Assembly (NCBI GenBank): GCA_016926735.1
Contig: JAFGOA010000021.1
Span: 1-35,993, forward strand
DNA: 35,993 nt
Reading direction: 5' to 3'
Origin: Promethearchaeota archaeon
Lineage (GTDB): Archaea; Asgardarchaeota; Lokiarchaeia; Sigyniarchaeales; SOKP01
Within the stretch, counting starts at the first letter, position 1, and each line of letters begins with the position of its first letter. Position numbers and translations under genes: made by a program. Shown piece after piece: positions 748 to 1,575 of this stretch. Under the pieces are notes generated by a model that saw only the letters and a list, made by a program, of their open reading frames with translations, was not told the origin of the DNA and did no database searches.

Positions 748-1362
748 TTAGAATTCTAAAAATCCAGGATCTTCAAAAACATCTTCAATATCTCGCTTTT
801 TGCGAATATCACTTTCATCATGTTCAGAGAATAAAGAATCCTCATCAGTTTTAATTCCTTCTTCTAGTTCTTCGGTCTCTAATTTCAATAAAACATCTTT
901 CTCAAGTCTTTTATATTTTTCTGCTTTAGCTTTCCAATCATTTACTTCATTGATATCGGCATTATCTTCTTCTTCTAATAGTTGAGCCGCTTTTATTCTG
1001 CATAAACTTGATAAAAGTGAGTAGGAAAGTGCGAGTTCTCCCCATTCATTATTTTCTTTTAATTTTGCAATACCTTTTTCTAGCCTTTGTAATTCTGTAT
1101 CTGCATAAAAAACATCAATAAAATCTCCAAAAGCATCAACAGGTTCTGATATAGAGTTGATCAATACTTCTTTTTCTAATCCACAATGACCACATTTGAC
1201 CTTAGCAAACCCCTCTTGTTTCTTTAAACTTTCCACTTTAACACTTTTTTCACCACAATCCTCATTTTATAGTAAGTCTATTAAATTTTGTGGGCAGGTG
1301 AAAATTTTTGGTAATTTTTTTACCCTTTTATATGTTTGCTGTTTTCTTTTTCTTCTTCCCAA
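748..1362 (-). CDS. elf1: Transcription elongation factor Elf1 with a C-terminal extension, interrupted by a 30-nt putative intron; join(complement(1288..1362),complement(748..1257)), 194 aa spliced
   Basis: TTG start at 1362 with AGGAGA just upstream. Reads MGRRKRKQQTYKRVKKLPKIFTCPQ|CGEKSVKV...AKVKCGHCGL...EPVDAFGDFID, matching the Elf1 pattern (MGRRK, FxCPxC, CxxC, EPVDxYxxxID). The ORF track shows only the downstream part (748..1236). Confidence 0.88.
1258..1287 (-). other. Putative 30-nt BHB-type intron in elf1
   Basis: Sense sequence AATTTAATAGACTTACTATAAAATGAGGAT contains an in-frame TAA. Removing it restores CPQCG. Central helix CCAC/GAGG (3 of 4 pairs), bulges AA|A and AT|T, intron stem ATTT(A)ATAG/CTAT(A)AAAT, exon stem including TTCACC/GGTGAA. 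Confidence 0.8.
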
Positions 1363-1575
1363 TTAAATCTCCTAAGTTTTTGAATTAACTAGATAAAAAA
1401 TATATATAAAGGTAGTAATTAAATCATGATATGATATAGAATCAAAACTAAAAAATTTTTGCTTTCTAAGATTTCGATAATTTTCCATAAAATTTTTTAG
1501 GGATAATGTATATACTTATTTACTCTTTTTAGCCAAATTAATTAAATCAATGATAAATAAGAGTGGATAATAGGT

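Follow-up and report, generated by a model that had tools for sequence, protein, structure and literature searches.

To our knowledge, the textbook view has for over twenty years been that bulge-helix-bulge (BHB) introns are found in transfer RNA (tRNA), ribosomal RNA (rRNA) and exactly one protein gene, cbf5. For the cbf5 introns, the available portion of the report on their evolution predicts cleavage between bulge residues 2 and 3 (PMC2738675), and a 2020 study, in the part of its text accessible to us, names cbf5 as the only coding-region BHB example and adds one intron in a 5' untranslated region (5' UTR) of Haloferax (PMC7714728). Asgard tRNA genes are described, in the available part of a preprint, as carrying heavy loads of BHB introns that were repeatedly gained at BHB-foldable sites (bioRxiv 10.64898/2026.10.13.758758); 'mRNA', 'Elf1' and 'cbf5' are absent from the text of that preprint. 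The Asgard splicing endonuclease EndA is, according to the accessible part of a further report, an (alpha-beta)2 enzyme with a loop allowing relaxed BHBs (PMC5829648). In this study, we analyzed a stretch of 35,993 nucleotides (nt) from a Promethearchaeota archaeon (contig JAFGOA010000021.1, assembly GCA_016926735.1; hereafter the window), in which 30 nt at 1258-1287 of the minus strand interrupt elf1. We conclude that these 30 nt are very probably an archaeal BHB intron in the elf1 pre-mRNA of this Lokiarchaeia-type Asgard archaeon. Positions are those of the window unless another contig is named, and L, C and G numbers are our handles for loci, contigs and genomes.

Identification of an interrupted elf1 gene

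The layout of the gene is given below, one feature per line.

1288..1362, minus strand: elf1 exon 1, TTG start at 1362-1360, 25 codons, the last three being TGC CCA CAA (CPQ); PF05129 profile positions 1-27.
1258..1287, minus strand: predicted BHB intron, 30 nt, with an in-frame TAA; orthologues have 28-32 nt or nothing at the same site.
748..1257, minus strand: elf1 exon 2, 169 codons plus stop (748-750), opening with CGEKS; it contains the remainder of the zinc ribbon, followed by about 115 amino acids (aa) of C-terminal extension; PF05129 profile positions 28-77, 39.2 bits.
1369..1372, minus strand: GGAG, a putative Shine-Dalgarno-like motif recognized by reading, 6 nt upstream of the TTG start.
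1401..1410, minus strand: TTTATATATA, a putative TATA-box-like element recognized by reading, 39-48 nt upstream of the start codon.

The original prediction, made from the DNA letters of the window, had held that the gene is elf1, that an insert splits its first zinc knuckle, and that the unspliced product stops at ...CPQNLIDLL; all three statements held up, and the minus-strand sequence that it gave for 1240-1305 was exact. Frame translation from the TTG codon yielded MGRRKRKQQTYKRVKKLPKIFTCPQ followed by NLIDLL and a stop, 31 codons in all, and exon 2 resumed the same frame 30 nt past the CAA codon, reading CGEKSVKVE, so that CPQ lies in exon 1 and CG in exon 2. The PF05129 (Zn_ribbon_Elf1) profile ran from 1 to 27 in exon 1 and from 28 to 77 in exon 2, with no position absent and none doubled; the read-through (X at the stop) scored 52.0 bits and exon 2 on its own 39.2, against a cut-off of 29.8. 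When 1258-1287 was removed in silico, a stop-free frame of 194 codons resulted, with cysteines at 23, 26, 47 and 50, and the C4 zinc ribbon (CxxC ... CxxC) of the product was complete solely once the insert had been taken out. In addition, residues 7-55 of exon 2 matched Elf1 chains of RNA polymerase II elongation complexes (8jh2_M, 6ir9_M and 5xog_M; best E 3e-4), and these matches were weak but specific, as seven of seven were Elf1. On these profile and structure-chain matches, the gene is elf1, encoding a transcription elongation factor, and it was the only PF05129 match in the genome.

Same-site inserts and covariation in orthologues

Comparison with orthologues, which the original prediction had proposed as a check on intron presence or absence, separated carriers and non-carriers at this site. 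Relatives of exon 2 were scanned in one genome per species and the best 80 of 118 were used, which together with the window gave 81 genes; by record title, the 80 loci came from Promethearchaeota-type metagenome-assembled genomes (MAGs), some with other Asgard names and one with a bacterial name. The junction was located in each locus by the F-T/N-C-P-x codons and the C-G-E-K codons. We found that CPxCG was contiguous, with no insert, in 45 of the 81 genes, whereas 36 carried an insert, always at one and the same nucleotide position, with a length of 28 nt in one gene, 30 nt in 13 (including the window), 31 nt in 16 and 32 nt in six. Almost two-thirds of these inserts (23 of 36) were not a multiple of 3 and shifted the frame, leaving no possibility of read-through translation. 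Exon 1 was open and conserved (MGRRKRK...FTCPx) in every insert-bearing gene, and the insert sequence types were nearly unrelated in primary sequence, yet alike in fold.

The shared fold was evident from the alignment of the 36 genes (35 distinct sequences). A 21-pair BHB structure had 92.2% of cells paired, in comparison with 43.7-49.1% when the 3' partners were slid by 1-3 columns as a control, and the outer helix reached 97.1% across the 35 distinct sequences. Double-sided changes occurred in nine BHB pairs (70 cells), with every one of the seven pairs scored in the inner hairpin and two of four in the central helix showing them, and the covariation score was reached by none of 500 shuffles. 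An example of a compensatory change in the central helix is CCAA/AUGG versus CCGA/ACGG. The case beyond chance depends on the same-site inserts, the covarying helices and the contiguous orthologues, and not on folding energy.

As to the provenance of these loci, record L033 (DATKTW010000134.1), titled Nanopelagicaceae bacterium, encodes a Loki-type Elf1 with a 30-nt intron; its contig or bin is probably mislabelled.

BHB fold and predicted splice sites

The structured element occupies 1247-1304, within 1240-1305, and its parts are as follows.

1294..1304, minus strand: outer helix h, 5' strand, formed by exon 1 codons (UUUUCACC.UGC) with one bulged U; minimum free energy (MFE) fold.
1290..1293, minus strand: central helix H, 5' strand CCAC, pairing with GAGG at three of four positions.
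1287..1289, minus strand: bulge 1, AAA, with the predicted 5' splice site after its second base, between 1288 and 1287; cleavage rule from PMC2738675.
1264..1286, minus strand: inner hairpin h2, AUUUAAUAG, loop ACUUA and CUAUAAAAU; MFE fold, with the double-sided changes described above.
1260..1263, minus strand: central helix H', 3' strand GAGG, from the BHB comparison of orthologues.
1257..1259, minus strand: bulge 2, AUU, with the predicted 3' splice site after its second base, between 1258 and 1257.
1247..1256, minus strand: outer helix h', 3' strand, formed by exon 2 codons (GUGGUGAAAA); MFE fold.

Folding with RNAfold, also proposed as a check, bore out the outer helix and the inner hairpin and left the central helix open. 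The MFE structure of 1310-1235 contained an outer helix of 10 base pairs (bp), in which the exon 1 strand with its bulged U paired with the exon 2 strand, and an inner hairpin of 8 bp plus one A.A, with a symmetric 7x7 internal loop (CCACAAA/GAGGAUU) between them. Read as a BHB, this loop gives CCAC/GAGG, with three G-C pairs and one A.A, and the bulges AAA and AUU on opposite strands, which agrees with the previous description of a relaxed BHB with one A-A mismatch in the central helix. The strict hBHBh' form has two 3-nt bulges with exactly 4 bp between them; in the window, the bulge spacing is right and the central helix consists of three pairs plus A.A, outside the strict form. What is found, 3-nt bulges four positions apart with helices flanking both sides, corresponds to the relaxed BHB form accepted by (alpha-beta)2 EndA. 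Judged by their pairing patterns, the elf1 introns are relaxed BHBs as a family.

Cuts after the second base of each bulge, between 1288 and 1287 and between 1258 and 1257, are the sole pair of positions yielding CPQ-CG. As had been predicted, such cuts would restore the reading frame, with all 194 codons open, and the resulting junction has the CPxCG form of the 45 intronless orthologues.

Distribution of the insert and codon context

To describe how the insert is distributed, we surveyed 101 genomes of the window's family with a hidden Markov model (HMM) of Elf1. A match was present in 89 of them, and these were sorted by reading of the match rows:

Uninterrupted Elf1: 59 genomes.
Single match with a stop inside: 11 genomes.
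Partial match with a TGA inside: 1 genome.
Match starting only at profile position 26-28, as frame-shifting inserts would give: 12 genomes.
Tandem-domain open reading frames (ORFs): 5 genomes.
Weak match only: 1 genome.

Four genera showed the interrupted pattern, the window's genus in all four of its genomes. Of 251 genomes sampled across the phylum, 204 had an Elf1 match, and among the matches listed, none outside the window's family had the best E-value typical of interrupted genes (1e-8 to 1e-13). On a tree of the exon 2 protein, intron presence and absence needed 17 changes, at least four of them forced by well-supported branches, and the window gene clustered with three other carriers of 30-nt inserts (99% support). 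Within one archaeal family, the elf1 intron is thus of old age and patchy occurrence, two features that the original prediction had not included.

In a raw contrast, the codons that flank the site also differed strongly between the two groups. The combination TTCACC...GGTGAA was present in 22 of the 36 intron genes versus none of the 45 intronless ones, and all six core pairs occurred in 26 of 36 versus 10 of 45. Intronless genes already had 6-8 of eight possible outer-helix pairs.

Several other features of elf1 were observed. The C-terminal extension (748-1100, minus strand; about 115 aa with an acidic tail at its end) was conserved in the window's family and order, where open frames were 193-212 aa, whereas they were 77-134 aa in most of the phylum's other families; a Pfam scan of the window gene gave no match to this extension. 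Non-ATG starts were frequent before the conserved GRRKRK, with TTG in the window (1360-1362) and at several loci (L003, L014, L038 and L050 among those cited), and other loci appeared by eye to start with GTG, CTG or ATA. In five genomes of genus code g11 (G050, G135, G151, G180 and G268), a frame of 253-261 aa contained two tandem Elf1 matches (profile 1-69/72 and 24-77), where a single domain is usual. Searches of the window found no known RNA families in 1000-1600 and no tRNA genes.

Splicing machinery in the genome

The genome contains two EndA-domain genes (PF01974; 100.8 and 66.3 bits), with ORFs of 203 aa (L081) and 202 aa (L082). By eye, a histidine is present in the catalytic-site region of one protein and none in that of the other, which fits the Asgard (alpha-beta)2 enzyme; the assignment of the two as alpha and beta subunits depends on what we take to be the catalytic triad.

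With regard to tRNA genes, ARAGORN identified a cluster of 21 on C157 (7086-13605), one with a called intron, and a cluster of six on C42 (7266-8492). Given the heavy interruption described for tRNA genes in this lineage, this is an unusual finding, which may represent a mobile element, a virus or bin contamination.

Proposed splicing of elf1 pre-mRNA and alternative explanations

Taken as a BHB intron, the insert could be removed in the following way. Exon 1 codons (UUC ACC UGC) would pair with exon 2 codons (UGU GGU GAA) to form the outer helix, and exon 1 CCAC would pair with GAGG near the 3' end of the intron to form the four-position central helix with its one A.A. The intron's own hairpin would provide the second flanking helix, and the two 3-nt bulges, AAA and AUU, would thereby be exposed. 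A heteromeric EndA would then cut after the second base of each bulge, and an RtcB-type ligase would join the exons. The mature mRNA would encode an Elf1 of 194 aa whose C4 zinc ribbon is intact, and the unspliced RNA only a 31-aa peptide. Elf1 production would, we infer, depend on splicing, which fits the single PF05129 match in the genome.

Several points weigh against this reading. First, the explicit BHB conformation has a folding energy of -9.5 kcal/mol versus -11.4 for the MFE, that is, 1.9 above it. Second, the folding energy itself is unremarkable (z = -1.39; equal or better folding in 14 of 200 shuffles), although the test covered a 76-nt AT-rich stretch, for which energy is uninformative. 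Third, the central helix is imperfect, with three of four pairs in the window and, among the 36 intron-bearing genes, four of four pairs in only six, three in 29 and two in one. Fourth, a phylogeny-aware test of the association between intron presence and complementary synonymous codons had four independent pairs on supported branches and gave a median p of 0.5; given only these four pairs, we make no claim of selection on synonymous sites. Fifth, neither HMM nor tblastn detected RtcB (PF01139) in this assembly, which is 99.3% complete; of 13 genomes searched, 11 had the gene, among them all three of the same genus, and its absence here is probably an assembly gap. Finally, cleavage and ligation in vivo, the identities of the enzymes and any regulatory role are deductions from sequence.

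The alternative that survives best, although we regard it as improbable, is that nothing is removed: the gene would be broken or split, giving the 31-aa peptide and a 162-aa protein that starts at an internal GTG at 1236 and lacks the first zinc knuckle, and the hairpin would have some other role. An ORF with this GTG start does exist at 748-1236, and splicing has been deduced rather than observed in RNA. A search of sequencing runs for 700-1500 of the window found no RNA run that contains this stretch, and no reads mapped at 85% likeness from three metatranscriptome runs of the same study, which share next to no sequence words with it; this result weighs neither for nor against splicing. On the other hand, a split gene does not account for an exon 1 that has remained open and conserved in all 36 insert-bearing genes, for an insert that always lies at the one nucleotide position restoring CPxCG, for the covarying BHB geometry, or for the 45 contiguous orthologues. 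A C4 ribbon short of two cysteines is also unlikely to fold.

Translational bypass, or hopping, of the phage T4 gene 60 type would yield the same protein without splicing, with take-off at the last exon 1 codon and landing before exon 2. The E-type orthologues come closest to this arrangement, having GAA before the insert, an immediate UGA stop and an insert that ends in GAA before TGC (e.g. L047), a layout that resembles take-off and landing codons around a hairpin. However, this GAA repeat follows from both bulges being AAU, cut after the second base, and the corresponding codons are CAA versus GAT in the window and AAT or AAC versus GAT in N-type genes; by reading, a matching landing codon is absent in 20 of the 36 genes. 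Bypass also does not need the exon-exon and exon-intron helices and leaves their covariation unexplained, and we consider it highly unlikely. An assembly or sequencing artefact, or an inconsequential population variant, is hardly credible: the window was drawn from a 238-contig assembly, but same-site inserts diverged in sequence and equivalent in structure were present in 35 independently assembled genomes from many studies. A BHB intron in elf1 pre-mRNA is therefore the explanation that we favor.

Further candidate mRNA introns in the same genome

The whole 3.88-Mb assembly was scanned for BHB geometry combined with an ORF test (flanks open, unspliced frame closed, junction in frame). The first scan produced 6,965 distinct candidate loci, of which almost all were AT-rich noise; elf1 ranked 7th by log-odds pairing score, and the top of the list was enriched for inserts of 29-32 nt. 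The flanks of candidates were then scanned separately against Pfam for continuity of the profile. Five further genes contained 29-32 nt BHB inserts across which the Pfam profile was exact or near-exact:

C50 5629-5657: PEBP gene, 29 nt, Pfam 2-83 / 85-135 (L087).
C17 29832-29863, minus strand: thioredoxin gene, directly after WCGPC, 32 nt, Pfam 19-33 / 36-87 (L088).
C151 13293-13321, minus strand: MoCF/CinA-type gene, 29 nt, Pfam 2-66 / 67-143 (L089).
C188 20431-20461: aEF-2 gene, inside the P-loop, 31 nt, Pfam 1-15 / 17-187 (L091).
C143 3050-3079, minus strand: NAD synthase (NadE) gene, 30 nt, Pfam 2-143 / 144-242 (L096).

Four other genes likely carry mRNA BHB introns as well:

C18 42938-42966, minus strand: aIF2-gamma gene, P-loop, 29 nt, one exon without a Pfam match (L097); likely.
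C177 8792-8822, minus strand: CTP synthase gene, profile gap of 11 positions (L099); likely.
C62 12420-12448: AIRS-family gene, one exon without a Pfam match (L086); likely.
C50 42170-42201, minus strand: DeoC-type aldolase gene, one exon without a Pfam match (L098); likely.

The aEF-2 insert was compared with relatives. It was present in all four genomes of the window's genus and absent from all nine loci of other genera inspected at the DNA level, and 11 more aEF-2 loci, known from open frames alone, were N-terminally complete. In one relative, the exon strand of the central helix had changed synonymously, and the intron strand showed a matching change. Because of this presence and absence among relatives and the compensatory change in the central helix, the further inserts are, on comparative evidence, bona fide intron-like elements, and the aEF-2 insert looks recent.

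Other candidates from the scan were not accepted. A possible 27-nt insert in a ParE-family toxin gene (C24 1459-1485 region, minus strand; L100) was not counted, the profile being non-contiguous (1-18 / 30-88), and candidates on C167 (26 nt), C141 and C4 appeared by eye to be ordinary gene starts. Most high-scoring candidates were AT-rich chance matches at gene boundaries.

Two observations concern the translation factors. aEF-2 (L091) and aIF2-gamma (L097) are interrupted in the same P-loop nucleotide context (G-H-x-D-H-G / K / T-T; site GG-A-A|A-G-AC in both), with outer helices built from V/I-D-H and K-T-T codons, which suggests either a site preference or copying between paralogous sites. 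In four of 31 sampled genomes (G007:C129, G138:C1, G209:C10 and G257:C30), the first 300 codons of the second aEF-2 paralogue contain one in-frame stop, and these stops may mark further introns of 3n length.

Taken together, it seems reasonably likely that many protein genes of Lokiarchaeia-type Asgard archaea (among them those for Elf1, aEF-2, aIF2-gamma and housekeeping enzymes) harbor BHB mini-introns, each about 30 nt long, as a dynamic population gained and lost on a genus timescale where codons can supply the outer helix. If so, the closest prokaryotic relatives of eukaryotes would routinely need mRNA splicing by EndA and an RNA ligase for essential proteins, and tRNA-splicing capacity could be linked to how much the transcription and translation machinery produces.

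Comparison with known systems

A full-text literature search, for which subscription journals were mostly outside coverage, found no published report of the elf1 intron or of Asgard mRNA BHB introns. As a BHB pre-mRNA intron, that of elf1 would be new in both its gene and its phylum, and it evidently belongs to a larger set that has yet to be described. Its occurrence across dozens of Asgard genomes, together with its sister introns, indicates that mRNA splicing by the tRNA machinery is no one-gene curiosity. In Asgard MAGs, such genes come out of gene calling systematically truncated or split. This has consequences for phylogenies and for sets of marker genes; both EF-2 and aIF2-gamma are in common use as markers. 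It appears that the lineage nearest to eukaryotes tolerates interrupted protein genes, and the arrival of introns and any regulatory role that they may have become testable in the available Asgard cultures.

Among known systems, the splicing of HAC1/XBP1 mRNA by IRE1/RtcB in eukaryotes is a protein-only, structure-guided excision of a short intron with joining of the tRNA-ligase type, and it changes the frame or the protein. The elf1 system would work alike, but the HAC1/XBP1 nuclease is IRE1 and not EndA and its substrate is twin stem-loops and not a BHB, and no homology is implied. PMC13149111 mentions this eukaryotic splicing. In Haloferax volcanii, HVO_1309 has a BHB intron in its 5' UTR, which is likewise an mRNA substrate of the archaeal splicing endonuclease; according to the accessible text, however, it belongs to Euryarchaeota and lies in an untranslated leader, where no frame depends on it (PMC7714728). 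The introns of Asgard tRNA genes have the same presumed machinery and motif, as far as the available part of their description goes (bioRxiv 10.64898/2026.10.13.758758), whereas the outer helix of the elf1 intron is made of protein-gene codons.

Nearest to the elf1 intron is the BHB intron in the cbf5 pre-mRNA of Crenarchaeota (Desulfurococcales and Sulfolobales; Watanabe 2002; Yokobori 2009, PMC2738675). In the available portion of the latter report, this intron is like that of elf1 in its relaxed motif, in the predicted cleavage site within the bulges and in patchy gain and loss among relatives, and the presumed mechanism is the same, with cbf5 depending on a hetero-oligomeric EndA (PMC2738675). 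In contrast with cbf5, the elf1 intron lies in another gene and another phylum, Asgard, and has only 28-32 nt, near the smallest size able to hold the inner hairpin. Finally, cbf5 is described, in the part of the 2020 study accessible to us, as the sole coding-region case (PMC7714728), whereas the elf1 intron appears to be one of several in a single genome.

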